A DNA stretch of 64,000 nucleotides from Candidatus Eiseniibacteriota bacterium (GTDB lineage Bacteria; Eisenbacteria; RBG-16-71-46; JASEGR01), in contig JASEGR010000002.1 of assembly GCA_030017955.1 (NCBI GenBank), positions 10,485-74,484 of the forward strand, in the 5' to 3' direction. The notes beneath the pieces are model-generated. The model searched no databases and had not been told where the DNA came from. It saw only the letters and a list, made by a program, of their open reading frames with translations. Each line of letters starts with the position of its first letter. Positions within the stretch are counted from its first letter, which is position 1. This document shows, one piece after another, positions 20,528 through 63,832 of the stretch. The position numbers and the translations under genes were made by a program.

Positions 20528-20558
20528 AACAAATTCTATTGTATGAAGTGAATTAAGT

Positions 20559-21965: not shown

Positions 21966-22123
21966 TCTATTTGCAAACAACGTCTATGGAAATGTGGAAA
22001 ACCCGCCAACTCATTATGAATCAATAGATTATCCATTTGTAGGCAAATGGGACTGGGTGGGCTTGTCTCTGTTTTCTCAACGATTTGCCCAATGAGATGG
22101 AAGCGTGAAAACTGAATAAGACC

Positions 22124-25100: not shown

Positions 25101-25327
25101 AACGGCTGAAAGCTGAGCAACTGAGAGTGCACGGTTGGAGGGAGAAAGAAGCCACGCGTGCTGCGGTGAAGACGTTTATTCATGATTTCCTCTGGAATGA
25201 ACAAACAGGCTTGCCGGCGGAAAGTTACAGTCCCCCAGAGGTTGAAGACAAGGTGGAGCTTATCTTCAATCATGTCCTCCGGCAGTATGTCGATGCCTCG
25301 GATCACGCATATGCAAGCGCGGCATAG
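22124..25327 (+). CDS. hsdR: Type I restriction endonuclease subunit R
   Basis: 1067 aa with SF2 helicase motifs WHTQGAGKS, ITDEAHRTQYG and QAIARANR. Confidence 0.9.
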   Translation: MTHNYSEDKLVQETTANYFRDKLGWESVYAYNDEILGPDGTLGRTTEREVVLVRYLRQALEKLNPGLSSDAYESAIRQIVETSVAKSTLQTNREKYELYKNGVLVSFRNSGGVVEKQKLRVFDFSDPTNNHFMVVRELWTQGPLYRRRPDILGFVNGIPLLFFELKNIHKDIRRAYSENLSDYKDTVPNILYHNAIVVLSNGSEAKVGSFSAKYEHFHEWKRLVEEDPGVVDMETLLKGICTKENVMDIFENFIVFDDSSGKLMKVLARNHQFLGVHRAIQAVRERKERKGRLGVFWHTQGAGKSYSMVFFAKIIHRKMQGSFTFLILTDREDLDNQIYRTFAGCGIVDNDKTKCRAGSGDNLEQLLRQDLPYVFSMIHKFNKDVNPDQPYTTRDDIIVITDEAHRTQYGRLALNMRNALPNASYIGFTGTPLFKDDEITMRIFGDYVSTYDFQRAVDDKATVPLYYDNRGEKLQITMTDINERIAQKLEELEFDPDQQAALERDLARDYHVFTAGKRLDAIARDFVSHYTQRWETGKAMMVCIDKITTVRMYNLIRGFWQQRIQEIEANMSKAGDEQEEIHLRRQLQWLMETEIAAVISEEQGEVEQFRRWGLDILQHRRKIKNGYETPDGKRIDIDLAFKNPDHRFRVAIVCAMWMTGFDVPSLSTLYLDKPLKAHTLMQAIARANRVYEGKTNGLIVDYCGILKNLREALATFATRSIVGGGEHVVDPLKPEEELLEELEEVVEETKAFLRERGFDLNRIIWNTGFERIQTIIAAKEVINLNEETRKRFEILAREVFNKVKACITIKGVNKYRDEYGAIDIIYRKLQDDRDRADITGIMKELQTIVDEAIVPRDLAESQDRVYDISKIDFERLKKEFTKSPTRNTMTFCLKEQVEKRLKAMIARNPLRTDLYRRYQEIIADYNLEKDRVTIEETFAALLRFVEQLDREEKRAIREGLDEETLALFDLLEKPKLRPRERNKLKMVAKELLERLKAEQLRVHGWREKEATRAAVKTFIHDFLWNEQTGLPAESYSPPEVEDKVELIFNHVLRQYVDASDHAYASAA

Positions 25328-47736: not shown

Positions 47737-48285
47737 ATGGATGATATGAGAACACAAATAGAGCCGGCACTCGGCGCACGGCTGGATGAAGTTGAGTTCT
47801 TGTTGCAGAGATCAAGCAAGTCACTTTCCAATGTTCTCATCATGGGCGAGAACAAAGCTGTACGGCTTGTTATCGCCTTTTCATTTCACAGCCGGGGAAG
47901 GACATCCCGTCTCCCATTCCTTGCTACAGACTGTAAGAATTTTCTTGGCGAGCTAAAGGAAAAACTGATAGATGGGCTGGACGGAAAAGACCGCAATGCA
48001 GGACATGTATCGCCGGTCACATGGGGAGTGTCCGGGACGACGTTTCTTGATGAGGCCGATGAAATCAGCGTGAGCGAGCAGAAGCTCTTCCTCGAGTTTG
48101 TGAAAGAAAGGGAGAGACAGAAATTTCTGTCGGTGCATTCGCCGATCGGAAGACTCGTGATTGGATCGGGGAAGAACCTCGAGGATTTATGCAGGTGGGG
48201 GAAATTTCTTCCCGAGCTATATGACTGCCTGAACAAAGTCAAGGTGAACCTCGCAAGCACTCCCACGCTGAGACTCGTGGAATAA
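47737..48285 (+). CDS. Degenerate stand-alone sigma54-activator AAA+ core (no Walker A lysine, no GAFTGA, no HTH)
   Basis: VLIMGENKAVRL replaces VLITGESGTGKE. GTTFLDEADEIS (Walker B region), KLFLEFV, RLVIGSGKNLEDL and LYDCLNKVKVNL are retained. Confidence 0.6.
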   Translation: MDDMRTQIEPALGARLDEVEFLLQRSSKSLSNVLIMGENKAVRLVIAFSFHSRGRTSRLPFLATDCKNFLGELKEKLIDGLDGKDRNAGHVSPVTWGVSGTTFLDEADEISVSEQKLFLEFVKERERQKFLSVHSPIGRLVIGSGKNLEDLCRWGKFLPELYDCLNKVKVNLASTPTLRLVE

Positions 48286-50069: not shown

Positions 50070-51190
50070 ATGTTGAACGAATTGCTTAACGTTCAAGATA
50101 TCATTCAAAGCCGCCATGAATTGTTACAACTGTTCGACGGTCTCAGTGACCCTATCATCATGATTGACAGACAGTTTGTCATTCAACGTGTGAATTCGGC
50201 AACTCTCTTGGCCTTGGGCAAGAAATCATTCGATGAATTCATTGAGAAGCCCTGCTACGAAATGCTGCACGGTTTGAGACAGCGCTGTCCTCAGTGTACT
50301 GCACCCTTAACCTTTTCTTCGGACTCTCCTGGACAGAAGACCGTACGCACCGGCTTCATGGAAGCCAAAGAGAACCCGTTGAAAACAACCTATAATATCA
50401 CGTGCTATCCGCTCATCAATGATGAAGGAGAGATAACCTCGATTGCGGAATATTATCGGGACAGCTCCGATATCGTGAATCTGAGCCGGGAACTGTATGA
50501 ATCCGAGCGGGCACGGATCATGGAATCACTGGCAGTGGGACTGGCTCACCAAATCCGGCAGCCGCTGACTATCATACGCTCCGCCGCCCAGTACGGGCTC
50601 GACACATTTACAGCTAAAGACAACTCCGCGAAAAAGGATCTTCGGGAAACCATGGAGAGTATCGTTCAGAATGTGGACACGGTGAACGATGTCCTCAATG
50701 ATTTGTTGCTATTTTCAAAACCTACCCAGTACAAGATGAAGAAGGGGTCTGTTGTTAAGTTGTTACAACAGGGGCTTCGGCTCGTCCGGCAGCTGACTAA
50801 AGAACAGCAGATTTCGGTGGCTACAGATTGGTCCCAAGACCTGCCGGAAATCCTGATCGACGAAAGACTCCTGCTCCAGGCATGTCTGAATTTATTGATG
50901 AACTCGATAGAGTCTATGACGAAGGGAGGACAGTTGACCGTCAAGGCGTTTTGTCAAGAGAATACGACACCTCCCAAAGTCTGCATCGCCATCGAAGACA
51001 CCGGCGTGGGGATCCCCAAGGAACTCATCTCGAAATTGTGTCAGCCTTTCTTTACCACGAAAGAGGGGGGGTCGGCTTGGGCCTGCCTGTTGCTGAAGGA
51101 ATCATTAGGTCGCACAGCGGCCGACTGCACTTTGAAAGTCGGGAAACTGGTGGAACGACAACTGTGATTGAGCTGCCCGTGGTCGTGTGA
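50070..51190 (+). pseudogene. PAS-sensor histidine kinase interrupted by a -1 frameshift in a G7 run
   Basis: The H-box reads LAHQIRQPLT, the N-box LLMNSIESM, and the G1 box EDTGVGIP. After FFTTKEGG (G-run 51065-51071) the G2 box and C-terminus (GVGLGLPVAEGIIRSHSGRLHFESRETGGTTTVIELPVVV) continue in the other frame to 51190. Confidence 0.75.
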
Positions 51191-51206
51191 TTCGGAGTGT
51201 TGTGGT

Positions 51207-52634
51207 ATGGGAATTAGGTACCCAGACGCTCTGATGGGCGATACGATTTACGTCATCGATGATGAAAAAGAGCTCTGCCTGACCCTCAAGAAGGTGTTGG
51301 AAGCCGAAGGATATCAAGTTCATTGGACGACCGACCCAGAGGAATTCCTTCCTAGGCTGCATGATAGCCGGCTCAGTTGCATCCTGCTCGATCTAAAATT
51401 GGGGGGCAAGGACGGCCTCGTTTGTTTGCGAAAGATTCATGAAACCGATCCGCATCTTCCGGTTGTCATGATCACCGCCTACGAAACGGTGAAGACGGCC
51501 GTCGAAGCGATGAAAGCCGGGGCGTTTCACTATTTGTCAAAACCCTTTGACAATGAAGAACTCAAAACGCTAGTAGGCAAGGCGGTTGAACTCCGCCACC
51601 TCTGCTGGGAACTCGAGGACTTCAGAAACAGGGCAGCCAATGCGTCGGACCTGGAATTTACGATGGGACATTCTAATGCTGTTCAGGGGTTGATCAGGCA
51701 ATGTGCTGCCGTGGCACGAACCGATGTCAATGTGCTGCTCACGGGCGAGAGCGGGACGGGCAAGGAGTTGATCGCCAACAGCATCCATCAACTGAGCGCA
51801 AGGAAGGATGGGCCTTGGGTACCAGTAGATTGTGCTTCTATCCCGGAATCTCTTATTGAGAGCGAACTCTTTGGCCATGAGAAGGGAGCTTTTACCGGGG
51901 CCCATGCTGCGCAGAAGGGAAAACTAGAGAAGGCGGATGGCGGGACTCTTTTTTTGGACGAAGTTTCCAACATTCCTTTCAACGTTCAAGCGAAGCTGTT
52001 GCGCTTCCTGGAAACGCATACCTTTGAACGGTTGGGCGGAAGACAGACTGTTGCGATTTCTATGCGAGTTGTCGCGGCTACCAACCGTGAACTTCCTCAG
52101 CTCATCAAGGAGGAAAGGTTCAGGCAAGATCTCTTTCATCGGTTCAACGAGTTTCCATTACGACTGCCGCCTCTGAGGGAACGCGTAGAAGACATCCCTT
52201 ATCTAAGCCTGAAATTCTTGAATGACTTTCAGGAACAGGTTGGCAAAACGTTTTCTGGTTTCAGTAGGCAGGCTTTGGAGGCGCTCCAATCGTATCCCTG
52301 GCCTGGCAATGTGCGAGAACTGCGAAACGTGGTCAAGCGGGCAATGGTTGTGGGTAGTGGCACGATCGAGAAGGCCGATTTGCCTGACGAGATTCGGAAT
52401 CCTTCGGCCTCAGGGACCCACCAAGGAGTGATCGTTTCGATCAAACCGGGTCTTCCGCTTTTCCAGGCCACCAGGGAAGCTGTGAGCATGGTTGAAAAAG
52501 AATTGATCCGGGGCGCTCTACAGCGGGCCGAAGGCCGCAGAGGCAAAGCGGCTGACTTGTTGGGCATTGATGAAAAAACATTGTATAACAAACTCAAGGA
52601 ATACAAGATCTATTTGTGGCAGTTGACAGGATAA
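51207..52634 (+). CDS. NtrC-family sigma54-dependent response regulator (REC, AAA+, Fis HTH)
   Basis: Contains IYVIDDE, CILLDLKLGGKDG, LLTGESGTGKELIA, a canonical EKGAFTGA, and a C-terminal HTH (GKAADLLGIDEKTLYNKLK). The start is ATG 51207 or 51234; the track start at 51168 overlaps the kinase. Confidence 0.9.
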   Translation: MGIRYPDALMGDTIYVIDDEKELCLTLKKVLEAEGYQVHWTTDPEEFLPRLHDSRLSCILLDLKLGGKDGLVCLRKIHETDPHLPVVMITAYETVKTAVEAMKAGAFHYLSKPFDNEELKTLVGKAVELRHLCWELEDFRNRAANASDLEFTMGHSNAVQGLIRQCAAVARTDVNVLLTGESGTGKELIANSIHQLSARKDGPWVPVDCASIPESLIESELFGHEKGAFTGAHAAQKGKLEKADGGTLFLDEVSNIPFNVQAKLLRFLETHTFERLGGRQTVAISMRVVAATNRELPQLIKEERFRQDLFHRFNEFPLRLPPLRERVEDIPYLSLKFLNDFQEQVGKTFSGFSRQALEALQSYPWPGNVRELRNVVKRAMVVGSGTIEKADLPDEIRNPSASGTHQGVIVSIKPGLPLFQATREAVSMVEKELIRGALQRAEGRRGKAADLLGIDEKTLYNKLKEYKIYLWQLTG

Positions 52635-52930: not shown

Positions 52931-53146
52931 ATGCCAGTCCAAAAAGCAATGGCGAGTTCTTCACTCGCAGAGGTTATCGATCGCATTCTCGATAAGGGAA
53001 TCGTGATCGATGCATGGGCCCGCCTTTCCCTGGTGGGAATCGAGTTCTTAAGTCTGGAAGCCCGGGTAGTTGTCGCGGGTGTCGAGACGTACCTGAAGTA
53101 TGCGGAAGCCATCGGGCTTACGCAGTCAGCGGCCAGTCCAGCTTAA
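52931..53146 (+). CDS. gvpA: Major gas vesicle structural protein GvpA
   Basis: 71 aa: [54 protein letters not shown]. Confidence 0.95.
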
Positions 53147-53261
53147 ATGAGAACGGGCAGATTTGTCGGGATAACCTCATTCCTTGAGTTTATGTCGCCA
53201 AATCAAGCCGCCCCTTTCGGGGTGTTATGAGTTTCCTATTTGCAAGGAGGGATCAGGCATC

Positions 53262-53831
53262 ATGGGGGGATTCGAACAGGTCAAAGACATGACAGCGGCG
53301 GTAGTGTCGAGTTATGACGAGCGGATCTGCGCCGTGGGAGAGATCGTCGAAAAGGGCCTCGCAATGCTTGATCAGTGTCGTCTTGTGGAGCAGGCTGTGC
53401 AATACGAGCTAAGAGAAAGACTAGCGAGGGTAGAGTCTCTGCGCAAGAAAGATTTTGATCAACTCATGGCCCCCATTTTGATCTACCAAAGTACAAGGGA
53501 ACAAGAGATTAGGCAGTTCATGAACTTTTTTCTGAAAACACAAAGGGAACTGGCAAGCCAGCTGAAAAGGATGATTGAAGCGGAGATTTTCTCAAGAGTC
53601 CCTGACCTGGAGAAAATCATCCAGACAAACATCGAGGCGGCGAGAGAACACGTAATCGGTTTCCAGAAAGAACAGGCAGTAATCGGGCGGAGAATGCGGC
53701 ACCTGTTTCTCAAACAGGAAGATCTCACTTTGAAGGAATTTAGAAAGACCGTGGACATTCTCTGTGGAGAACTGGGCTTGGAGAAGGAAGAAAAACTCGC
53801 AATGCCGGCAGCAGTATTGTCGCATTGCTAA
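53262..53831 (+). CDS. Coiled-coil protein in the gvpC position, paralog 1 (189 aa)
   Basis: ATG 53262 follows AAGGAGGG. It shares the N-terminal motif SSYDERICAVGEIVEKG with the next ORF (ASYNERVNFLGKNIVDT). The sequence is helical and charged. Confidence 0.5.
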   Translation: MGGFEQVKDMTAAVVSSYDERICAVGEIVEKGLAMLDQCRLVEQAVQYELRERLARVESLRKKDFDQLMAPILIYQSTREQEIRQFMNFFLKTQRELASQLKRMIEAEIFSRVPDLEKIIQTNIEAAREHVIGFQKEQAVIGRRMRHLFLKQEDLTLKEFRKTVDILCGELGLEKEEKLAMPAAVLSHC

Positions 53832-53847
53832 AAAGGAGGTGACTACC

Positions 53848-54186
53848 ATGGGATTGGCACAGCAGTTTACAAACCTCGGGGAAGATATGATCGCCTCCTA
53901 CAATGAGAGGGTGAATTTCCTCGGGAAGAATATCGTGGATACCCACAGGCTCCTTGGCGGCTTCAGAAAAGACCACAAAGCAATGGGCAGAAAGCTCAGG
54001 AGCGATCTGGCCGTCTTTCCGATTGCCCTGACGGAGACGGTTGATCAGATGCTGTCCAAGTTCCGAAAGGAACACCGGGAGGCCCATCGCGCGTGGCAAC
54101 AAGTGGCCAGGACGATGGCAAGCAAGCGCCATAACTTCAATGCAGCGCTGACGAAGGCCAAGCAAAGCGCTGCCCGGACGCGCTGA
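53848..54186 (+). CDS. Coiled-coil protein, paralog 2 (112 aa)
   Basis: ATG 53848 follows AAAGGAGGTG and gives MGLAQQFTNLGEDMIASYNERVNFLGKNIVD. Confidence 0.5.
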   Translation: MGLAQQFTNLGEDMIASYNERVNFLGKNIVDTHRLLGGFRKDHKAMGRKLRSDLAVFPIALTETVDQMLSKFRKEHREAHRAWQQVARTMASKRHNFNAALTKAKQSAARTR

Positions 54187-54216
54187 AACACGGCTTTTTC
54201 ACGGAAGATCACGTCC

Positions 54217-54234
54217 CTCCGCCTCAGGGCGGAG
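54217..54234 (+). other. GC-rich hairpin (CTCCGCC-TCAG-GGCGGAG), possible intra-operon attenuator
   Basis: Read directly from the sequence. It follows the three promoter-proximal genes and has no U-tract. Confidence 0.3.
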
Positions 54235-54261
54235 CGGACCTGATCCTCCCTGGAGGAAAAG

Positions 54262-54621
54262 ATGTCCAACCTAGTTCAGAAAACGACCCACCTATCCCAC
54301 ACCAAGAAGATACCATGTGCCTTTTGCAGAGGGACAGGAAAAGATCCATTCGGACAACTCTATCCGGGATCGACCTGCCAGGTCTGCCATGGAAGGAGAG
54401 AGGTCTATCTCCTTACCCCTTATAAAGCCTGTGCCTATTGTCATGGAACCGGAGTCGCCTTCAGCACGCAAAATACCTGCACTTCCTGCAAGGGGCGGGG
54501 TGTCATCAGCCTGGGGAATCAAGGCTTAAAAGGAATAATTTGTAGTGCCTGTGGCGGGACAGGAATGAATGCTGAGATGAACCTTCCCTGTGCCACCTGC
54601 AATGGGCTTGGCTCCATTTAG
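54262..54621 (+). CDS. Stand-alone DnaJ-type cysteine-rich zinc-finger protein with six CxxCxGxG-like repeats
   Basis: The repeats are CAFCRGTG, CQVCHGRR, CAYCHGTG, CTSCKGRG, CSACGGTG and CATCNGLG within 119 aa. Confidence 0.7.
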   Translation: MSNLVQKTTHLSHTKKIPCAFCRGTGKDPFGQLYPGSTCQVCHGRREVYLLTPYKACAYCHGTGVAFSTQNTCTSCKGRGVISLGNQGLKGIICSACGGTGMNAEMNLPCATCNGLGSI

Positions 54622-54636
54622 GAAGGAGATGCAAAG

Positions 54637-55575
54637 ATGGAAACGCAGGAAATGACTCTCTTACAACCGCAAGCAGGTAAAGAGTTTGTAGAGACTCCAT
54701 TTGTCAGAACGACCGTGGCGCGGGCTATGCATTATCTTAGGGCCGGCTTTCCAGTTCATTTTCGGGGAATCTCGGGCACAGGAAAGACGACACTCGCCCT
54801 CAGGATTGCAGAACTGCTCGAAAGACCAGTCGTGATGATCCACGGGGATGAGGATCTCAACACAGCCGACTTGGTCGGCGCGGAGACCGGCTATCATGTG
54901 AGGAAACTCCGGGACAACTTTATTTCTTCCGTTCTGAAGATCGAAGAGGAGATGTCCAAGCGGTGGGTCGACAGCCGACTGACCGTGGCGGTCGAGAACG
55001 GCTACACCCTGATTTATGATGAATTCACCCGTTCGCGGCCGGAGGCAAACAATATCCTCCTCTCCGTCCTCCAGGAAGGAATACTGGATCTCCCTCTGAG
55101 CCGGGATGGAGGACAGGCCAGCCATCTCAAAGTCCATCCAGAGTTCCGTGCAGTCTTCACCTCGAATCCGGAAGAGTACGCTGGGGTCCACCGCTCCCAG
55201 GACGCTTTGCGAGACCGCATGGTCACCCTTGATTTGGAGTCATTCGATGAGATCACAGAGTGCGCCATCACCAAGGCCAAGTCGGGACTCTCCCTGGAAG
55301 GGGTGAAAAAGATAGTGAAGATCGTGCGCTACCTGAGAGAACACGGGCAATATGAGTTCTCCCCCACGATCCGGGGCTGCATCATGATCGCAAGGACCGT
55401 CAGGGAGTATGGAAAGGAAGTTCAAGTTTGTGCCTCCGATTCCCTTTTCTCTTCCATCTGTCTGGATATCCTCACGTCCGAGACTTCTCGGATCGGGAGC
55501 AAGACGACCTCTGCCAAGGTGAGGGAGGTAGTAAGAAAAGCGATCGAAGAATACTGCGGTAACGGAAACCGATGA
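54637..55575 (+). CDS. gvpN: Gas vesicle AAA+ ATPase GvpN
   Basis: 312 aa with FRGISGTGKTTLALRIA and LIYDEFTRS. Confidence 0.9.
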   Translation: METQEMTLLQPQAGKEFVETPFVRTTVARAMHYLRAGFPVHFRGISGTGKTTLALRIAELLERPVVMIHGDEDLNTADLVGAETGYHVRKLRDNFISSVLKIEEEMSKRWVDSRLTVAVENGYTLIYDEFTRSRPEANNILLSVLQEGILDLPLSRDGGQASHLKVHPEFRAVFTSNPEEYAGVHRSQDALRDRMVTLDLESFDEITECAITKAKSGLSLEGVKKIVKIVRYLREHGQYEFSPTIRGCIMIARTVREYGKEVQVCASDSLFSSICLDILTSETSRIGSKTTSAKVREVVRKAIEEYCGNGNR

Positions 55576-55591
55576 ATCAAGGAGGAACGAT

Positions 55592-55933
55592 ATGCCAATC
55601 CCGGTAAATTTACCCAAAGGTTGCTCTTCAAGTCGCGGGGCCTCGGACATCCGCCACATGAGTTCGAGAAGAGCCAGTTTGGTCCAAGAGACCAATCGGC
55701 TCTATATGCTTAGTGTCAGGCACGAAAGCCTGATGAACAAGAGGTCTGCCATGGCGCTCAGACTCAAGGAGATCAATGAGCAACTCAAGGGGATAGAGAC
55801 GGACATTGGTGCAACTGACAAACAGTACAGGAAGTTGCAAGGGAACAGCTCGCACAAAAGGAACAGCAAACGTGCGCAAATGAGCGGAAGAAACAATGGC
55901 CGCTCCGTAAGGGCAGTTCCCTTCAAATTCTGA
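55592..55933 (+). CDS. Basic coiled-coil hypothetical protein downstream of gvpN
   Basis: ATG follows AAGGAGGA; 113 aa. This is the position occupied by small accessory gvp genes in other clusters. No motif recognised. Confidence 0.45.
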   Translation: MPIPVNLPKGCSSSRGASDIRHMSSRRASLVQETNRLYMLSVRHESLMNKRSAMALRLKEINEQLKGIETDIGATDKQYRKLQGNSSHKRNSKRAQMSGRNNGRSVRAVPFKF

Positions 55934-55990
55934 CAAAAATGCGCAAATACTTGAGCTTGCTCCAACCTGCCAGCAGAGGAGGAGAATATT

Positions 55991-56524
55991 ATGAAAGAAG
56001 AGAAAAAGAAGAAAGCTGCATCCGTAGCGGAAGCCGGAGGATTTCTCGGGGGTCTTTTTAAAGGATTGGGAGATCTTATCGACCTTGCGGACAAAGTTAG
56101 TCAAGAAGGAGGAACCATCCAGAAGCAAGGTGAATTTCGCATCCCCGGACAAAAGGATGCGAAAGGAGTTTTTGGATTTACCGTCCGAAGCATGGCGGGG
56201 CCCGGTGGCGAAAGGCGCCCCATCGTCGAGCCTTTCGGGAATATCAAGAGGACCCAAGAAGGGCCTGTGGTTGAGGAGACCAGGGAGCCCATTGTTGATG
56301 TTTTCGAAGAGAAAGATGCTGTCCAGATCGTTGCAGAGCTCCCCGGTGTGACCGAACAAGAAATCCACTGCGAGGTTCACGGAGATGTGGTCGCTCTGTC
56401 TACCAGCGGAAAGCGGAAATACAACAAGGAGATTCTACTGAAAGACCCTGTGGAAGAAAAACCTACCAAGGTTAGCTACAGAAACGGCATGTTTGAGCTG
56501 AAGCTGAAAAAGAGGCAAAACTGA
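55991..56524 (+). CDS. Hsp20/alpha-crystallin-domain protein (GvpH-like)
   Basis: The C-terminal half reads VDVFEEKDAVQIVAELPGV...VSYRNGMFELKLKK, which is alpha-crystallin-like. The N-terminus is Gly-rich. Confidence 0.8.
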   Translation: MKEEKKKKAASVAEAGGFLGGLFKGLGDLIDLADKVSQEGGTIQKQGEFRIPGQKDAKGVFGFTVRSMAGPGGERRPIVEPFGNIKRTQEGPVVEETREPIVDVFEEKDAVQIVAELPGVTEQEIHCEVHGDVVALSTSGKRKYNKEILLKDPVEEKPTKVSYRNGMFELKLKKRQN

Positions 56525-56589
56525 AAGTGAACTTTTCCAAACCTTTGCCACGGGTTCCAGTGACCCGGGTTTTAGAAACGTGAGACTCT

Positions 56590-58773
56590 ATGAGTAGCCC
56601 GCCAAAACAATTATCTCCTCATCCCAAACTAGATACGCTAACCCTCCGAGTTAGTGAAGCATTAACCAAAGATGTCGGCCACGGCATTGCCCGTCTCGAT
56701 CCAGCGGATATGGAAAAACTGGCATGTCAGGTTGGCGATACAATCTACATTGAAGGAAAACGGACCACAATTGCCAAAGTCGCGCCAACCTATCAAGAAA
56801 ATCGTGGGGAAAAGTGCATCCAAATGGATGGAATCTTGCGCGAAAATGCCAAAGTCGGGCTGGATGAAAAGGTTCACATTCGCACGACCACAGTTGTACC
56901 AGCCAGGTCCTTGCGCCTGAAGACAACGCTGGGGGCTCTCAGACAGAGTTCCCTTCCGAGCGCAGACCGTTACATGGGGCGTCTGCTGGAGGGTTTGCCG
57001 GTAATCAAGGGAGACAAAATCCGGGCTCTCTTGTTTGGTTCCCGCACCCGTGATTTTGAGGTGGTCGATACTCTGCCCGAAGGGGCCGTGCTCATTGCAT
57101 CGACTACCCAAATCAACATTGAGGGAGAAGAGCACAAGGGGGGAGAAAAACAGCCTACTGCCGTTTCATACGAGGATGTTGGAGGCCTTGGCAAAGAGAT
57201 TCAGCGTATCCGGGAGATGGTGGAGCTTCCCCTCAAATACCCTGAAGTGTTTGACCGCTTAGGAATCGATCCTCCCAAGGGAGTCCTGCTCTACGGGCCA
57301 CCAGGGACCGGCAAGACCTTGATTGCACGTGCGGTTGCTCACGAATCGGAAGCCAATTTCTTCTCCGTGAATGGTCCGGAAATTGTGCATAAGTTTTATG
57401 GTGAGAGTGAAGCTCATCTCCGCAGTATTTTTGAACGGGCGAGCCAGTCTCCGGCCTCGATTCTGTTTATCGATGAAATTGATGCCATTGCGCCAAAACG
57501 GGCAAACGTTCAGGGGGAGGTGGAAAAGCGGATCGTTGCCACACTGCTTTCGCTCATGGACGGTCTCAAATCGCGGGGGCAGCTCATCGTGATCGGGGCA
57601 ACCAACATGCCCGATCTTCTGGATCCCGCCTTGAGACGCCCGGGTCGGTTCGACCGCGAGATCCAGATCGGGATCCCGGACCGGAATGGACGCCTGAACA
57701 TCCTGGAGATTCATACACGCGGCATGCCGCTCGCCAAGGATGTGAGTATCGCTAAATTGGCTGAGATCACGCATGGCTATGTAGGGGCGGATCTCGAAGC
57801 ACTGGCCAGAGAAGCTGCCATGAGTTGCCTCCGTTCACTGTTTCAAGAAAAGGACATCTCCCTGGAAGAAATTCCTGACGAGGTGATTCAGAGCCTCGAA
57901 GTCCGCATGGATCACTTCTTGGAGGCCTTACGCGAAGTAGAGCCTTCAGCCATCCGGGAGGTGAGCATTGAGATTCCCGATGTTCGATGGGAAGATGTTG
58001 GAGGACTCGATGCGGTGAAGGAGACATTAAGAGAAACGATAGAGTGGCCTCTCAAGTATGATAGGTTATTTGAAATTGCTAGGTTGCGACCCATCAAGGG
58101 GATCTTGCTTCATGGCCCGCCTGGGACCGGTAAGACCCTGCTCGCCAGAGCCCTGGCCACGGAAAGTGGCGTCAATTTTGTTTCGGTTAAAGGACCCGCC
58201 TTGCTGTCAAAATGGGTGGGCGAGTCTGAGAAGGCATTGAGGGAAATCTTCAAGAAGGCCAAAGCGGCCGCTCCTTGTATCTTGTTTTTTGATGAGATCG
58301 ACAGCTTGGCCCCGCATCGTCATGGCGGAGGGAGCGACTCTGGAGTGATGGAACGATTGATGAGCCAATTCCTAGCAGAGTTCGACGGAATCGAGGAGCT
58401 CAAGGGGGTTCTTGTTCTGGCTGCCACGAATCGGAAGGATCTGATCGATCCTGCCTTACTTCGCCCAGGGAGATTCGACCTTCTGATTGAACTTCCTCTG
58501 CCGGATCTCAAAGCCCGGCAGGCTATCTTCGAGATTCATACGAAGGGAAAACCGCTGGACAAGGGTGTGGACTTAGAGGCCTTAGCTCAAGTCACACAGG
58601 GCTGGAATGGATCCGAAATCGAAGGGATTTGCCGCCAGGCTGCCGTGAACGCTCTGAGAAGTTTCATCGTGGGTGATGAGAAAGAAGGGATGGGGAAGGT
58701 GGCAGGATTCAAGATTAGTATGAAGGATTTCCAAAACGCAGTGGCAGCTTCAAAGGAGGGCCCCGGGAAATGA
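56590..58773 (+). CDS. CDC48/VCP-like double-ring AAA+ ATPase
   Basis: 727 aa with a CDC48-N-like start ([20 protein letters not shown]...[10 protein letters not shown]). Both AAA modules carry GPPGTGKT and a FIDEIDA/FFDEIDS Walker B motif. Confidence 0.9.
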
Positions 58774-59834
58774 GTTGCTATCTCTATGGTGTCATTGAAT
58801 CAGAACGGGCGATAAGTTTCGGCCCTATTGGTTTCGAAATAGGAGACAGGAGGAGAGGGTTGGTTGTAGCAATGCCAGACCCTTCGGCCAAGCTTCCCAC
58901 AGCTCAGACTCTTGCAGCAGTCATTGGTCCGGTGCGGCAAGTGAATTTCGATTGTCTCAACAAGGAACGATTGGTCAGGACTTTGTTAGCCCATCAGGAA
59001 ACCATGGAGACAATCATGAGAGACCAGTTCATCCTTCCCTGTAAATTCGGCACGGTATTAAGGGACCAGCAAGAGGCCAGGGAGCTCCTTTCCCAGAACG
59101 GAACACTCTTGGCTGAATGGCTTGACAGAATGCAAGACAGCTACGAGATGGGTGTCGTTGCAAGCTGGGATATCCATCCGATTTTGAAAGAAATTGCGGC
59201 TAGCGATTCTGAGGTCATGGAACTGAAGGCGCGTTTAGAATTGTTGTCTTTGGAGGAACAGGAAAGGGGGAAACTGCCTTTGGGGATGCTCCTATCGGCA
59301 AAATTGAAGGAACGAGCTCAGCGTTATGCCGAAGATATCGTTGCAGGATTAGAGGAAGTAAGTGAGTCCCACGCCACCCATGACTTGATAAATGACGAGA
59401 TGGTTCTCAACGCCTCTTTCTTACTTTCTCGCGCTGGCGATGACGCCTTTTTCAGGGCCCTGGAGGGTTTGGACAATCGGTGGGCCGGAAAATTGAATCT
59501 TAAGTGTATCGGTCCCCTGCCTCCTTACAGTTTTGCCACAGTTACCATCAAACGGTTTGATCTGGAAAGGATCCATCGGGCCTATGACACGTTGGGACTA
59601 AAGCGTCATGCGGATGTGGATCAGGTGAAGCGCGCCTACAGAAACATGGCACGTCAATGTCATCCCGACACCCATCGTGGATTGGACAAGGGAGAATTTC
59701 TGGGCGTCCATCAGGCGTATGAACTCCTGGTTGAATATTATGAAGGAGGCTGCAAGCCGACGAAGGTGGCCTTGTCTAGAGTGGAAGAAGGAAATGTGGA
59801 AGAACACACGTCGAGTCAACCGGTCTTGGTATGA
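58770..59834 (+). CDS. GvpF/L-family protein fused to a C-terminal J-domain
   Basis: The N-terminus [21 protein letters not shown] and IGPLPPYSF are GvpF/L hallmarks. The C-terminus [32 protein letters not shown] carries an HPD tripeptide. Confidence 0.8.
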
Positions 59835-60577
59835 AGCACGAGGGAAAATACGTTTACGGAATTATCGCTGCTGAAGATGCTCCCAATTTTGGTCCTATTG
59901 GGATTGGCGGCCATGATGATGAGGTGACGACCATCGGGACCAGAGGGATTGCCGCGGTGGTCAGTAGGGCTTCAACGGATCACTTTGTTGTTTCCATGGA
60001 AAATCTGACCGCCCACATCAAGGTGGTTGAGAGAATCATGGAATCTTACACGGTGCTTCCTATGCGCTTTTGTACGGTGGCTGAGACGGCGGACGAGATT
60101 ATTGCGTTTTTGGAAAAAAACTCTAGAGAGTTGAAAGGCAAGTTAAAAGATCTCGATGGTAAAGTAGAGATTGACATAAAAATAGTCTGGACGGACATGA
60201 AAAAGGTCTACGAGGAGATTGTCAAAGAAAATAGAAGAATTCGGGCACTGAAGACAAAGGAGACAACGGGAACCCGGCAAGACCTGATCCGCGCCGGCGA
60301 ACTCGTTGCCACAGCTTTGGAAGAAAAGAAGGCAGTTGAAGGAGATAGATATCTAAGGCTTTTCAAGAAGGCCGCGGCCGACTGCAAAGAAGATGAGCCA
60401 GGCGCAGACGAAATGGTAGCCCACGCTGCATTCTTGATCGACAAGGGTTGGCTGAAGGAATTTAACAACACGGTTGAAGGGGTGGGGGAGGAGTTCAAGG
60501 AAAGAATTCAGATTCACTGTGTGGGCCCCCTGGCGCCCTTTAGTTTTGTGAACTTGCAGCTGCACTGGGTAGAGTAA
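59831..60577 (+). CDS. Gas vesicle protein GvpF/L family
   Basis: KYVYGIIAAEDAPNFGPIGIGG...VGPLAPFSF. Confidence 0.85.
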   Translation: MKHEGKYVYGIIAAEDAPNFGPIGIGGHDDEVTTIGTRGIAAVVSRASTDHFVVSMENLTAHIKVVERIMESYTVLPMRFCTVAETADEIIAFLEKNSRELKGKLKDLDGKVEIDIKIVWTDMKKVYEEIVKENRRIRALKTKETTGTRQDLIRAGELVATALEEKKAVEGDRYLRLFKKAAADCKEDEPGADEMVAHAAFLIDKGWLKEFNNTVEGVGEEFKERIQIHCVGPLAPFSFVNLQLHWVE

Positions 60578-61393
60578 ATGCAGGAATTGAAAGAGGAGAA
60601 CGTTGCTGTGATCGAACCAACCGGACTGTGGGTCTACTGTGTGATCCACAATAGGGGGATTCTAAACCTGGAGACTCAGGGTATTCATGGGACCAGCCCC
60701 GTTCATACGGTGGCCCATGGGGATTTTGCAATGGTTGTTTCCGCGGAACCGATGAAAAAATATCGCTTGGCCCGTGATTTTCTCATCGCGCATCAACTGG
60801 TCAATGAGAAGGTCATGCAGACCCAACCAGTGCTGCCGGTCAAGTTTTGCACGATGGCCAAAAATGCGGAGCAAATCGTCGAACAGGTCCTAAAGCAGAA
60901 AGAGAAGACGGAGGAATTCCGCAAGACATTTGCCGAAATTGACGGGAAGAATGAGTACGGTTTGCGAGCCCGATGGAAAAACATGGACCAGGTTTTTGCA
61001 GACTTGACCCAAGAAAATGAAAAAGTCAAAACGGCAAAAGAGAGGGCCCTGAGACTGTCGAACTCCGAACGCCATGTTGCTCTGATTGATATTGGCCATG
61101 TCGTGAAGGAGGCCCTTGAGGAGAAAAATGCCAGGACAGCCGAGTTGTTGATCCGTGAACTCGCCCCTCACGCTGTCCAGTACAAAAGGCAAAATGTCCT
61201 TGGAGACATGAACATTCTCAATACCGCTTTCCTGGTTGATGCGGAGAGGCAAGTCCGGTTTGATCTGGCCGTGAATACCTTGGTGGAGAGGTATGAGTCC
61301 CTGATGCAGTTCAAGTATGTAGGGCCCGCGCCGCCCTTTAATTTTGTTGAGATTGTCATTCACTGGGATGGGACCGGTAACACGACAGGTTAA
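60578..61393 (+). CDS. Gas vesicle protein GvpF/L family
   Basis: LWVYCVIHNRG...VLPVKFCT...VGPAPPFNF. Confidence 0.85.
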   Translation: MQELKEENVAVIEPTGLWVYCVIHNRGILNLETQGIHGTSPVHTVAHGDFAMVVSAEPMKKYRLARDFLIAHQLVNEKVMQTQPVLPVKFCTMAKNAEQIVEQVLKQKEKTEEFRKTFAEIDGKNEYGLRARWKNMDQVFADLTQENEKVKTAKERALRLSNSERHVALIDIGHVVKEALEEKNARTAELLIRELAPHAVQYKRQNVLGDMNILNTAFLVDAERQVRFDLAVNTLVERYESLMQFKYVGPAPPFNFVEIVIHWDGTGNTTG

Positions 61394-61395
61394 CC

Positions 61396-61623
61396 ATGGC
61401 ATTCTTATTCGATGATTTAGTTTTCTGGATTGGCAAAAGAGTCAAAGAAATAGCTGATGAGGAGTTGTATGGGGATTCGAAGAAGATTCACGAGCAACTG
61501 CTTTCCCTTCAGACCAGACTGGATATGGGAGAGATCCAAGAGGAAGAGTATAAGGTCAGAGAGATGGAGATCTTGGATCGATTGCAGGAGGCCCAAGAGC
61601 ATGAAGAACAAAACGAGACATAG
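61396..61623 (+). CDS. gvpG: Gas vesicle protein GvpG
   Basis: 75 aa: FLFDDLVFWIGKRVKEIADEELYGD...EEEYKVREMEILDRL. Confidence 0.8.
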   Translation: MAFLFDDLVFWIGKRVKEIADEELYGDSKKIHEQLLSLQTRLDMGEIQEEEYKVREMEILDRLQEAQEHEEQNET

Positions 61624-61677
61624 GAATGTCGAAGAGCAAATCAAGAAGGAGTTGAACACTTTGGAAAGGAGGTGTTT

Positions 61678-61935
61678 GTGTTGGGCATTCACGAAGTAAA
61701 GGTCAGGGTTGCAGAGTTTCTTCAAAATGAGTTAGGGCAAGAGCCCGAGGCTTTTAGATTTCTCAAACTGGCCAAGTCGGATGGTGGTTGGGAAGGAACA
61801 GTGGAGGTGACCGAGCTAAATGAGTATTTGAAGAAGCTCGGTTACCCTCCTATTTTCGACAAGAACCGCTATGCGGTTGCGTTGGATGAAAATCTGAATG
61901 TCATCCGGTACGGACGCGAAGAGGAGGAGGAATAA
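61678..61935 (+). CDS. gvpO: Gas vesicle protein GvpO-like
   Basis: DGGWEGTVEVTELNEY...YAVALDENLNVIRYGR fits the GvpO pattern. The start codon is uncertain (GTG 61672, GTG 61678 or TTG 61681) and follows GGAAAGGAGG. Confidence 0.6.
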   Translation: MLGIHEVKVRVAEFLQNELGQEPEAFRFLKLAKSDGGWEGTVEVTELNEYLKKLGYPPIFDKNRYAVALDENLNVIRYGREEEEE

Positions 61936-62160
61936 GTGCCGCTCATCCATTCTACAAGGGGAGATACTTTGGCCGATGTGGTGGAGCGGATTCTTGACAA
62001 GGGGTTGGTGATCAATGCCGATATCGCGATCTCTCTGGCCGGTACCGAGCTCCTGAGCATCAAGATCCGCGCCGCGTTGGCGTCCTTCGAGACGGCGGCA
62101 AAATGGGGGTTGGCATTTCCTTCGGAAGTGAGAATCGCTCAGCCAGTTCCGAAAGCGTAG
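61936..62160 (+). CDS. GvpA-family minor protein (GvpJ/M/S-like)
   Basis: GTG start follows GAGGAGGAGG. The sequence reads LADVVERILDKGLVINADIAISLAGTELLSIKIRAALASFETA. Confidence 0.85.
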   Translation: MPLIHSTRGDTLADVVERILDKGLVINADIAISLAGTELLSIKIRAALASFETAAKWGLAFPSEVRIAQPVPKA

Positions 62161-62213
62161 GAATACATGATGATGTCTCTGCCAAGGCTTAGACACTTAT
62201 GAAAGGAGATAAT

Positions 62214-62393
62214 ATGGCCAGCAACGAGAAAGAAAAGAAAGAGGAAATCGCAGATGATATTTTTGAGACCGTGGATAAAATCATTCCCGGCTTCGGCTCC
62301 TTCTTCAAGAAGGGAGAGAAAAGCGAGAAGTTCGGTGACCGCATGAGAAAAATCCGTGAGGAGATCAACAAGCGTTTTGGGGGGATGAGATAA
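62214..62393 (+). CDS. Small charged hypothetical protein (59 aa)
   Basis: ATG 62214 follows AAAGGAG. PGFGSFFKKG loosely echoes GGFLGGLFKGLG in the N-terminus of the Hsp20 ORF. Confidence 0.4.
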   Translation: MASNEKEKKEEIADDIFETVDKIIPGFGSFFKKGEKSEKFGDRMRKIREEINKRFGGMR

Positions 62394-62444
62394 TTGTAAG
62401 GATGCCTGAGTGGTGGGCCTCAAGGAGTCAAGCGGTTCCTAACC

Positions 62445-62768
62445 ATGAAGATCGAAGTCGATGATAAGGATCTAAAACATGGCCTGTTGGGATTGGTTTT
62501 GGCCATCATTGAGGTAATCCGAGATACCTTGAGGATTCAATCCCTCAAGAGAATGGAAGGCGGCCATCTGACCGAGGAACAAATTGACCGGTTGGGGGTC
62601 GCCCTGCTGGAGTTGGACAAGGCGATAGAGAAAATCAAAGAGGAACAGGGAATTTCGGAAGCGGTGCGGTCTGTGCGCGATGGGCTTGACGATTTGGTGG
62701 ATGGGATGGTCCAGAAATTGGCTGATCCCAGCCCAGTTACTGACAAGGAAGTGACGCTGGTGGGTTAG
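62445..62768 (+). CDS. gvpK: Gas vesicle protein GvpK
   Basis: LKHGLLGLVLAIIEVIRDTLRIQSLKRMEGGHLTEEQIDRLG. Confidence 0.85.
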   Translation: MKIEVDDKDLKHGLLGLVLAIIEVIRDTLRIQSLKRMEGGHLTEEQIDRLGVALLELDKAIEKIKEEQGISEAVRSVRDGLDDLVDGMVQKLADPSPVTDKEVTLVG

Positions 62769-62782
62769 AAGGAGTTTGGTCT

Positions 62783-63556
62783 ATGACTGCCGACGGGATT
62801 TATGTCTACTGCGTTACGAAGGGAGATCGGGAAGAATCATTGGATGTGCGGGGTATCGAAGGAGCACGAGTGCGGGTCATGACTCACCAGGGATTGGCAG
62901 CGATCGGGCAAGACTGTGAGCCCAAGCTGTTTGCCTCTCAAGGCCAGAGTGTTTTGACGGATTGGCTCCTGATCCATCAAAGTATCGTGGATCTTTCATG
63001 GGAGCGATACGAAACTATCGTTCCGTTTGCGTTTGGCATGATCGTTGTGCCCACGAACGGGAAACCCGCCCGGCAAAACCTCGATGAGTGGCTGGAAAAG
63101 CAATCGGCGGAACTCAACCGCAAATTGGAAAATCTCAAAAACAAGGCGGAATATGGCGTCCAGGTTTTGTGGGATCTAGCCACGATTGTTTCGCGTATTA
63201 GGGAACAAGATAACGAGATCCTGAATCTGGAGAAGGAGATCTGCTCCAAACCGACAGGGGTCGCTTATCTGCTGCAACAAAAACTGGAGGAACTGATCCG
63301 ACAGCGTTTGGAGACGGCTGCCAATACGCATTTCAAGGCCTTCTATCAACAAATCCGTGAATCTGTTGAGGACATCCGCGTGGAAAGGATAAGGAAAGAA
63401 GAGCTCCCAAGACAAATGATCCTGAACGTCTCTTGCCTGCAAAACAGGGATGAAACGGCAACCCTGGGGGCAGTGTTGGAAAGAATCGGCCAGATTCCTG
63501 GTTTCGATGTCCAATTCACCGGTCCCTGGCCGCCGTACTCCTTCGTCAGTGTTTGA
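62783..63556 (+). CDS. Gas vesicle protein GvpF/L family (fourth copy)
   Basis: GIYVYCVTKGD...IVPFAFG...TGPWPPYSF. Confidence 0.8.
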   Translation: MTADGIYVYCVTKGDREESLDVRGIEGARVRVMTHQGLAAIGQDCEPKLFASQGQSVLTDWLLIHQSIVDLSWERYETIVPFAFGMIVVPTNGKPARQNLDEWLEKQSAELNRKLENLKNKAEYGVQVLWDLATIVSRIREQDNEILNLEKEICSKPTGVAYLLQQKLEELIRQRLETAANTHFKAFYQQIRESVEDIRVERIRKEELPRQMILNVSCLQNRDETATLGAVLERIGQIPGFDVQFTGPWPPYSFVSV

Positions 63557-63577
63557 CTGTTAATAGTTACCACTCTT

Positions 63578-63832
63578 ATGGAACCAACTCGACAGGGCAG
63601 AGCAACTCTCGCGGACCTATTGGATCGGGTTCTAGATAAAGGTCTGGTTCTCAACGCAGACGTAATTATTACGCTAGCTGGTGTTCCTCTAATTGCCGTG
63701 AGCCTCTCTGCAGCAATCGCCGGTGTGGAGACCATGCTTGAGTATGGTCTCATGAAAGATTCTATTCTATCCCAGACTCTTCAAGAAAAGAGATTTGCGG
63801 ACCCCGTGCCAGAACAAGTTGAACTAGGGTAG
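63578..63832 (+). CDS. GvpA-family minor protein (GvpJ/M-like)
   Basis: LADLLDRVLDKGLVLNADVIITLAGVPLIAVSLSAAIAGVETMLEYG. Confidence 0.85.
   Translation: MEPTRQGRATLADLLDRVLDKGLVLNADVIITLAGVPLIAVSLSAAIAGVETMLEYGLMKDSILSQTLQEKRFADPVPEQVELG

Follow-up and report, generated by a model that had tools for sequence, protein, structure and literature searches.

A GvpF/L gas-vesicle protein fused to a J-domain: a candidate Hsp70 co-chaperone encoded in gas-vesicle gene clusters of many phyla

We analysed a 64,000-nucleotide stretch of contig JASEGR010000002.1 from a Candidatus Eiseniibacteriota bacterium (below, the window, meaning this stretch at its full length) and found that one gene of its gas-vesicle (gvp) cluster encodes a 354-amino-acid protein in which a GvpF/L domain is followed by a J-domain with an intact HPD tripeptide. 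The same fusion, one per cluster, occurred in gvp clusters of more than 15 phyla, many of which also contain a dnaK gene. We consider it probable, at about 0.6, that the fusion acts as a class C (type III) J-domain co-chaperone, whose GvpF/L fold would serve as the client-targeting module that loads a Gvp client onto DnaK.

The original prediction, made from the DNA letters and their translations, had placed GvpF/L hallmarks in the N-terminal part of this open reading frame (ORF) and a J-domain in its last ~80 residues. The ORF, which starts with ATG on the + strand, and the quoted peptides were found where they had been placed (Table 1). Pfam GvpL_GvpF (PF06386) matched residues 3–256 (E=1e-48, 167 bits, profile positions 2–244 of 245), and Pfam DnaJ (PF00226) matched residues 271–320 (E=1.3e-11, profile positions 2–53 of 63) with 44.9 bits against a gathering cutoff of 27.8, so the concern that no hidden Markov model (HMM) would detect a J-domain falls away. 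Only a few residues separate the two domains. A sequence search of the PDB aligned the GvpF crystal structures 6l5d and 4qsg with residues 70–259 and ~30 solved J-domains with residues 271–323. The tripeptide H298-P299-D300 is encoded by the codons cat ccc gac. A Shine-Dalgarno sequence (aaaggagg, 58752–58759) precedes the start codon, which overlaps the stop of the upstream Cdc48-like gene (ATGA), and the stop of the fusion likewise overlaps the start of the next GvpF/L gene. Among the NCBIfam models, those of DnaJ, CbpA, DjlA and TopJ matched solely through their J segment; the DnaJ/CbpA equivalog scores were 20–37 bits against cutoffs of 338–619, and neither DnaJ_C nor DnaJ_CXXCXGXG was matched in Pfam. 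Having neither a glycine/phenylalanine-rich (G/F) region nor the DnaJ C-terminal domains, the fusion is a class C J-domain protein and not an ortholog of DnaJ or CbpA.

The architecture recurred in every collection that we searched. Among 5.8 billion proteins there were 103 relatives, with 27–65% identity to the query, and 93 of them had both Pfam domains. When GTDB was scanned with one genome for each species, 458 relatives came up, and the best 80 loci aligned nearly all through the J-domain. In a six-frame survey, each of 86 loci (86/86, >15 phyla; L numbers below) encoded a single GvpF/L protein that bears a J-domain with HPD, which answers the suggestion to look for the fusion in other genomes. 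At E<=1e-10, a profile built from the junction, J-domain and tail detected 906 representative clusters (50% identity) in a set of 1.84 billion; the first 150 were nearly all 330–400 residues long and matched at about residues 220–335, that is, with the same architecture. The carriers included Desulfobacterota/'Deltaproteobacteria', Nitrospirota, Chloroflexota (Anaerolineae and Dehalococcoidia, and the cultured Ktedonobacter robiniae and Dictyobacter vulcani), Planctomycetota, Acidobacteriota, Omnitrophota, Zixibacteria, Latescibacteria, Aerophobetes, NC10, Elusimicrobia, Actinomycetota and a Methanoperedens metagenome-assembled genome (MAG). Because both HMM matches exceed curated cutoffs and the arrangement recurs in hundreds of independent sequences, the GvpF/L-J architecture is far beyond chance.

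These data also bear on an assembly or annotation artefact, in which a frameshift, as the original prediction had warned, or a lost stop would have joined a GvpF/L gene to a small J-protein gene. Such artefacts exist in these data: a stop-free frame of 1,001 amino acids at L018:1-3003, which resembled an Hsp70-GvpF/L-J triple fusion, proved to be two genes joined by a masked run of N (X in the translation), a caution for automated domain-architecture counts. At the window locus nothing was found in favour of an artefact. The frame runs unbroken through the domain boundary, without ambiguous bases or homopolymer runs, and the same fusion is present in 86 independent loci of many phyla and in ~900 clusters. 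HPD follows the GPLPPYSF motif at a distance of 42 residues in the majority of loci, within an overall range of 42 to 44, and AlphaFold models both domains as one confident unit. We therefore regard an artefact at this locus as practically out of the question. The fixed spacing implies a rigid geometric relation between the domains; the fusion of L036 has a variant motif (MPLPPHSF), and its J-domain with HPD is present.

The structure of the fusion protein was modelled with AlphaFold2 from a 26-sequence alignment (mean predicted local distance difference test score, pLDDT, 90.2; predicted template-modelling score, pTM, 0.81; pLDDT of 93–97 in the J region). In the model the last GvpF/L strand (257–262) is followed by helix I (265–274), helix II (283–297), the HPD loop and helix III (307–325). 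Foldseek matched the N-terminal part to GvpF structures (6l5d_B, TM-score 0.78, E=4e-13; 4qsg, 0.72), with E values of ~1e-12 to 1e-13 for GvpF, and the two-lobed alpha-beta fold of the GvpF crystal structures is present. The C-terminal part superposed on many J-domains at 1.4–1.6 A (5vso, 1.4 A; 2m6y, 1.6 A), among them the E. coli DnaJ J-domain bound to DnaK (5nro_B; root-mean-square deviation 1.5 A over 54 columns, TM-score 0.72), which bears out the proposal that the predicted structure would superpose on a DnaJ J-domain. HPD sits between helices II and III, which form an antiparallel hairpin superposable on solved J-domains. The helix II-HPD-helix III pattern of the original prediction was recovered in this way; its J-domain has to be corrected to helices I–III only, a β-strand tail taking the place of helix IV.

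J-like domains that have lost Hsp70 activation typically lose HPD. In the 26-sequence alignment H, P and D were invariant at overall identities down to 27%. For a family-wide count, GvpF/L proteins were chosen solely by a C-terminal tail longer than 55 residues, HPD playing no part in the selection; 177 of 181 carried it (177/179 once two paralogs with unrelated tails were excluded). These two paralogs, one carrying TPR repeats, make up half of the four exceptions, and the others are degenerate J-domains with QPD (P0057) and HRQ (P0068), which may be natural loss-of-function variants. Relative to HPD, the family consensus of helix II has K/R at −11 (93%), Y at −8 (90%) and R/K at −7 (68%), which correspond to R22, Y25 and K26 of E. 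coli DnaJ; over the longer pattern, I, K/R, A, Y, R/K, L and A are kept, matching I21-R22-A24-Y25-K26-L28-A29. As judged from these positions, the basic DnaK-contacting face of helix II is retained in the family, the fusion of the window included. Retention of HPD in ~99% of members together with this basic face, down to 27% identity, reads as a signature of selection for Hsp70 activation.

The tail that follows helix III is itself conserved. In the fusion of the window it comprises residues 326–354. In the family, it is a hydrophobic β-strand with basic residues on its flanks (examples are KVALSRV, VLITVRR and LLLIKVRA). Across relatives, 45% of tails contained a stretch with at least 4 of 5 hydrophobic residues, against 21 +/- 3% of shuffled tails, and a CSF(R/K)xxD motif often precedes the hydrophobic strand. 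The conserved tail resembles a DnaK-binding peptide or a docking strand. In a Pirellulales-type cluster a different GvpF/L paralog (L083:13636-14649) ends in a TPR-like extension and not in a J-domain, so GvpF/L appears to have served more than once as a base to which C-terminal adaptors are fused.

The window encodes four GvpF/L paralogs with mutual identities of 22–29%. Scored against cyanobacterial GvpF, paralogs 2 and 3 reached ~69 bits, the J-bearing paralog 48 bits, and paralog 4, next to GvpK, 22 bits. When the J-domains were cut off, the top-20 cross-locus BLAST hits of the 86 fusion GvpF/L domains were 100% fusion proteins, compared with only 0.9% fusion proteins among the top-20 cross-locus hits of the 111 paralogs without J-domain. 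By this measure the fused paralog is an orthologous subfamily of its own, one per gvp cluster. Since the GvpF/L domains group together even without the J-domain, the fusion is old, probably of a single origin, and has travelled with the cluster. Assignment to GvpF or GvpL was considered and ruled out: in NCBIfam the protein scored 66.7 bits with the GvpF equivalog (cutoff 350) and 50.5 with that of GvpL (cutoff 200), and these and the PDB scores place it in neither.

The strongest pointer to Hsp70 outside the protein itself came from related clusters, in which linked Hsp70 genes were located by a motif scan followed by Pfam and NCBIfam. In many other carriers the gvp cluster contains a full-length DnaK-type Hsp70 gene (PF00012, 629–790 bits), and these proteins pass the NCBI DnaK equivalog NF001413 (699–900 bits against a cutoff of 648). 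A dnaK lay within 10 kb in 15 of the 39 loci of at least 15 kb, where ~1% or fewer would be expected for a random gene. Two arrangements were seen. In Anaerolineales-type clusters (L009, L025, L031, L043, L050, L077) the end of dnaK coincides with the start of the fusion gene, and in L027 and L086 only a Volactin-like actin-fold gene stands between them. The other arrangement, with dnaK closing the cluster in the order 'GvpK FL A/J Hsp70' (FL, GvpF/L), was found in Nitrospirota, Planctomycetota, Dehalococcoidia, Syntrophales, Aerophobetes, Edwardsbacteria and a Pseudomonadota MAG. Judged by the stricter TIGR02350 model, the Hsp70s at the cluster end of L075 and L080 fall short of the cutoff (676 and 717 against 822), and this suggests that cluster-end Hsp70s are specialised paralogs. 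No GrpE was seen in the annotated contexts of the related loci. As a separate observation, the Volactin-like (PF25216) gene, at 4139-5182 in L086, is also present in L015, L022, L027, L054, L067, L068 and L087, between dnaK and the fusion or elsewhere in the gvp cluster. From the dnaK genes beside the fusion in many clusters, the genomic arrangement implies that Hsp70 would help to build gas vesicles.

Several observations weigh against the co-chaperone reading. The Hsp70 signature is absent from all 64 kb of the window, which therefore holds no linked dnaK: the ORF that follows the cluster, from 63924 onward, starts with MKTLKKVLSIIALISVSIF, is signal-peptide-like and not DnaK, and none of the ~620-residue ORFs upstream qualifies as Hsp70. 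About 60% of the long loci are likewise without a linked Hsp70. Helix IV was not found in the J-domain of the fusion, in which the Pfam alignment reaches no further than profile position 53 of 63 and strands are modelled at 331–339 and 342–347. The fusion was not seen in the model gas-vesicle organisms (Halobacterium, Anabaena, Priestia megaterium and Serratia), and most carriers are uncultured organisms in which gas-vesicle production has never been shown. Finally, Gvp binding is known for the haloarchaeal and Priestia GvpF/GvpL only, and both the closest GvpF ortholog and the GvpL-like paralog lie outside the fused subfamily, so moving those binding data to this subfamily is an extrapolation.

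Some of these points would fit a J-domain that works as a structural or dimerisation module, or as an adaptor for another partner such as the Cdc48-like ATPase, and not through Hsp70. The replacement of helix IV by a family-specific tail, the lack of a linked dnaK in the window and in many long loci, and the degenerate motifs of P0057 and P0068 all lean this way. Against it stand the near-universal HPD, kept with the basic face of helix II in strongly diverged members, and the linkage to dnaK in many phyla, and we hold such a role to be very unlikely. Helix IV lies outside the known DnaK-contact surface of J-domains, and its absence therefore leaves function possible.

In the co-chaperone reading, the GvpF/L domain would bind the hydrophobic GvpA-family shell proteins, the accessory-protein nucleation complex, or both, as published interaction data for GvpF and GvpL suggest: GvpF binds GvpA directly and GvpL binds all accessory Gvps (PMC7688916), and GvpF has been proposed to be a transient chaperone of GvpA2 before hand-over to GvpG (PMC11445434). 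The rigidly attached J-domain would engage ATP-bound DnaK through the HPD loop and the basic helix II and set off ATP hydrolysis, upon which DnaK would clamp the Gvp client at the GvpF/L site. We infer this docking from the conserved J-domain features and from the linkage between dnaK and the fusion gene elsewhere. DnaK would then keep the aggregation-prone shell subunits assembly-competent and pass them to later factors such as GvpG. For the window, the housekeeping DnaK is assumed to be the partner because no dnaK is linked there. The small heat-shock protein (sHsp), the DnaJ-type zinc-finger protein and the Cdc48-like AAA+ ATPase of the cluster may act as holdases and unfoldase in a proteostasis network specific to gas vesicles, and heterologous expression of gas vesicles is known to cause proteotoxic stress (PMC12848028).

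The same J-domain and dnaK-linkage evidence would also serve a release or recycling role, auxilin- or HscB-like, in which DnaK pulls the GvpF/L complex apart, frees GvpA to GvpG or the growing shell and recycles GvpF/L. The fixed linker, which suggests exact placement of Hsp70 relative to the bound partner, the C-terminal position of the J-domain on a scaffold-binding protein, as in auxilin, and the transient nature of GvpF-GvpA binding, from which GvpG displaces GvpF (PMC11445434), speak for it. A need for active disassembly of GvpF/L complexes is without support, and we consider release unlikely, if deserving of attention. Less likely still would be quality control, in which the fusion marks mis-assembled or aggregated Gvps for extraction by DnaK, the Cdc48-like ATPase and the sHsp, by analogy with sHsp-DnaK-ClpB, and does not act in productive assembly. 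The Cdc48-like gene, which overlaps the fusion start and is translationally coupled to it, the order 'sHsp Cdc48 FL-J', the commonest across loci, and the proteotoxicity of GvpA overexpression (PMC12848028) agree with it. The combination of sHsp, Hsp70 and a hexameric AAA+ protein is, moreover, an established disaggregation triad. However, L007, L009, L025, L027 and L086 have Hsp70 and the fusion with no Cdc48-like gene within reach, and Cdc48-like proteins lack the M-domain that couples ClpB to DnaK. Between delivery, release and extraction of mis-assembled material the sequence cannot decide; delivery to DnaK, as in the co-chaperone reading, is the role that we prefer.

Proteins that join a targeting domain to a J-domain are known from other systems. 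Like the HscB (Hsc20)/HscA/IscU system, the fusion would be a specialised J co-chaperone without G/F or DnaJ C-terminal domains, with a non-J domain that binds one client and an HPD that activates Hsp70, and in both cases the Hsp70 gene often adjoins, as in the six Anaerolineales-type loci named above. In HscB, however, the J-domain is N-terminal and a helical bundle serves IscU, whereas the fusion has a C-terminal J-domain on the GvpF/L alpha-beta fold; the window cluster has no dedicated Hsp70, and the sequence relation is limited to the J-domain. Auxilin/GAK with Hsc70 shares the C-terminal J-domain on a binder of a self-assembling shell or lattice, with Hsp70 placed at a defined site, a comparison in which shell binding by the fusion is presumed; unlike the fusion, auxilin is eukaryotic, disassembles a finished clathrin coat and has an unrelated lattice-binding domain. 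TopJ, which Mycoplasma pneumoniae needs for the assembly of its terminal organelle, is likewise a bacterial organelle-specific J-domain protein. The TopJ models NF037946 and TIGR03835 scored 26.7 and 21.3 bits on the J region of the fusion, far below their cutoffs of 300 and 512, and the match is confined to the J-domain; TopJ differs in its N-terminal J-domain and long acidic and proline-rich regions, and is unconnected with gas vesicles. Canonical GvpF (Microcystis 4QSG, Anabaena 6L5D) and haloarchaeal GvpF/GvpL share with the fusion the Pfam family, fold, cluster context and the C-terminal GP(L)PPYSF-type motif, but no characterised GvpF/GvpL has a J-domain, and the fusion forms its own subfamily below the equivalog cutoffs. 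The window cluster, finally, holds both signature modules of class A DnaJ, the J-domain (in the fusion) and a CxxCxGxG zinc finger (54262–54621); in contrast to DnaJ, they are on two proteins, the G/F region and C-terminal substrate-binding domain are missing, and there are six zinc-finger motifs instead of four.

The gvp cluster of the window spans ~51.2 to 63.8 kb on the + strand, with 52931–63832 from gvpA to the last gene (Table 1). It comprises, in order, the sigma-54 response regulator, GvpA, two conserved proteins without assigned function, the zinc-finger protein, GvpN, a 113-residue coiled-coil-like protein, the sHsp/GvpH-like protein, the Cdc48-like ATPase, the fusion, two GvpF/L paralogs, GvpG, a GvpO-like protein, GvpA/J, a 64-residue protein, GvpK, the last GvpF/L paralog and GvpA/J. 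A matching gene order was found in a Nitrospirae MAG and a 'Deltaproteobacteria' MAG; loci with this synteny include L001 and L081. The sigma-54 response regulator likely controls the cluster, and the four small ORFs without Pfam family (p215, p140, p113 and p64) are probably undescribed accessory Gvp proteins. The zinc-finger protein, which stands between the conserved unassigned genes and gvpN and consists nearly entirely of CxxCxGxG-type motifs, matches the DnaJ Cys-rich domain (1exk) and Ydj1 (1nlt). Similar proteins occur in 43 of the 86 loci in one to six copies, the highest numbers (five or six) being reached in Anaerolineales clusters. Single- or double-domain ArsA/ParA-like ATPases are encoded in many related clusters (L083:9011-9997, L084:13119-15146, L086:10550-13683), consistent with the published association of ArsA with gvp (PMC2963123).

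Table 1. Coordinates of the fusion gene, its parts and the other genes of the gas-vesicle cluster (window positions unless a locus is given)
Feature	Position	Strand	Evidence and remarks
GvpF/L-J fusion gene	58770..59834	+	Pfam GvpL_GvpF + DnaJ; AlphaFold pLDDT 90.2, pTM 0.81
GvpF/L domain (aa 3-256), proposed client-/complex-binding module	58776..59537	+	Pfam PF06386; Foldseek GvpF
J-domain helices I-III (aa 265-325)	59562..59744	+	Pfam PF00226; AlphaFold helices; superposition; helix II residues
HPD tripeptide, Hsp70 ATPase-triggering motif	59661..59669	+	Codons; invariant in alignment
Conserved C-terminal tail replacing helix IV, predicted β-strands	59745..59831	+	AlphaFold secondary structure; tail composition
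Response-regulator sigma-54 activator directly upstream of gvpA	51168..52634	+	Pfam Response_reg, Sigma54_activat, HTH_8; same place in L081, L083, L085
GvpA, major shell protein, presumed ultimate client	52931..53146	+	Pfam Gas_vesicle 57.4 bits
Stand-alone DnaJ-type zinc-finger protein, 119 aa, six CxxCxGxG-like motifs	54262..54621	+	Pfam DnaJ_CXXCXGXG 41.8 bits (cutoff 32.7)
GvpN-like AAA+ ATPase	54637..55575	+	Pfam AAA_5 E=2.7e-18; conserved position
Small heat-shock/GvpH-like protein	55991..56524	+	Pfam GvpH 20.9 and HSP20 20.4 bits, both slightly below cutoff; position conserved in related clusters
Cdc48-like double-ring AAA+ ATPase, 727 aa	56590..58773	+	Pfam CDC48_N, CDC48_2, 2x AAA; stop overlaps fusion start (ATGA)
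GvpF/L paralog 2, without J-domain	59831..60577	+	PF06386 E=3e-55; 69 bits to cyanobacterial GvpF 4qsg; start overlaps fusion stop (ATGA)
GvpF/L paralog 3, without J-domain	60578..61393	+	PF06386 E=9e-56; 70 bits to 4qsg
GvpG	61396..61623	+	Pfam GvpG 59.9 bits
GvpO-like protein, weak match	61672..61935	+	Pfam GvpO 16.7 bits, under the cutoff; lies where L083-L085 have GvpO
GvpA/J-family protein	61936..62160	+	Pfam Gas_vesicle 62.6 bits
GvpK	62445..62768	+	Pfam GvpK 65 bits
GvpF/L paralog 4, most divergent, adjoins GvpK (GvpL-like position)	62783..63556	+	PF06386 E=5e-55; 22 bits to 6l5d
GvpA/J-family protein, last cluster gene	63578..63832	+	Pfam Gas_vesicle 58.8 bits
Four small ORFs without Pfam family (215, 140, 113, 64 aa; p215, p140, p113, p64)	53184-53831, 53764-54186, 55592-55933, 62199-62393	+	Position conserved across related gvp clusters
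Cluster Hsp70 genes of related loci	L031:7929-9956; L009:731-2548; L086:1639-3492; L075:15527-17398; L080:13497-15353; ~18 more loci		

Upstream of the cluster we noted three further features, all on the + strand. A 1,716-residue protein (41920–47070), ~4 kb upstream of the gvp regulatory genes, is an unusual fusion of a kinase and an enhancer-binding protein, with Ser/Thr protein kinase, STAND-type AAA_16 NTPase, TPR, GAF, sigma-54 activator AAA+ and HTH_8 segments. The 182-residue ORF at 47737–48285 has a partial Sigma54_activat match only and may be what is left of a sigma-54 activator after truncation. A type I restriction-modification system occupies 17211–25327, with HsdM (N6_Mtase) at 17211–19343 and HsdR at 22124–25327; the ORFs between them are probably HsdS and an accessory gene. 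The relatives of an HndC/NuoF-like protein, at 76–82% identity, belong to MAGs named Bacteroidota, Acidobacteriota and Marinimicrobia and gave no information on taxonomic placement.

In the literature open to full-text search, with subscription-only papers outside its reach, we found no description of the fusion or of any J-domain, DnaJ, DnaK or Hsp70 tied to gvp clusters, dnaK genes within gvp clusters included, and none of a role of a Cdc48-like AAA+ protein in gas-vesicle biology. The only such associations found were those of ArsA and Hsp20 with gvp clusters (PMC2963123). This agrees with the original prediction, which knew of no description of the fusion, though the proteins themselves are already in public databases, labelled mostly 'GvpL/GvpF family gas vesicle protein' or 'hypothetical protein'. 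The sequences are thus known, and the biology of the fusion appears to be undescribed.

How the very hydrophobic GvpA stays soluble and enters the growing vesicle is an open question, and a chaperone role of GvpF has only been hypothesised (PMC11445434). A J-fused GvpF/L paralog, often beside its own dnaK, offers natural genetic evidence of a GvpF/L fold interfacing with ATP-dependent chaperones. If, as we think probable, the fusion is a J-protein of class C whose targeting domain is new and which ties Hsp70 to gas-vesicle biogenesis, gas vesicles would be added to the few prokaryotic structures that have a J-protein of their own, next to Fe-S clusters (HscB) and the Mycoplasma terminal organelle (TopJ). 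Proteotoxic stress limits the heterologous expression of gas vesicles (PMC12848028), which serve as acoustic reporter genes; candidate helpers for such expression are the genes of the fusion, the linked DnaK, the zinc-finger proteins and the Cdc48-like ATPase. We would tentatively go one step further, to a possibility that we hold to be a good deal short of even: an organelle-dedicated, ATP-driven chaperone line, in which sHsp and zinc-finger proteins act as holdases, the GvpF/L-J adaptor hands GvpA-family subunits to DnaK, in many lineages encoded by the cluster itself, and the Cdc48-like protein acts as unfoldase, making Hsp70 an obligatory assembly factor of a widespread class of gvp clusters. 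If that were true, supplying the module could unlock the expression of many gvp clusters that fail in E. coli.

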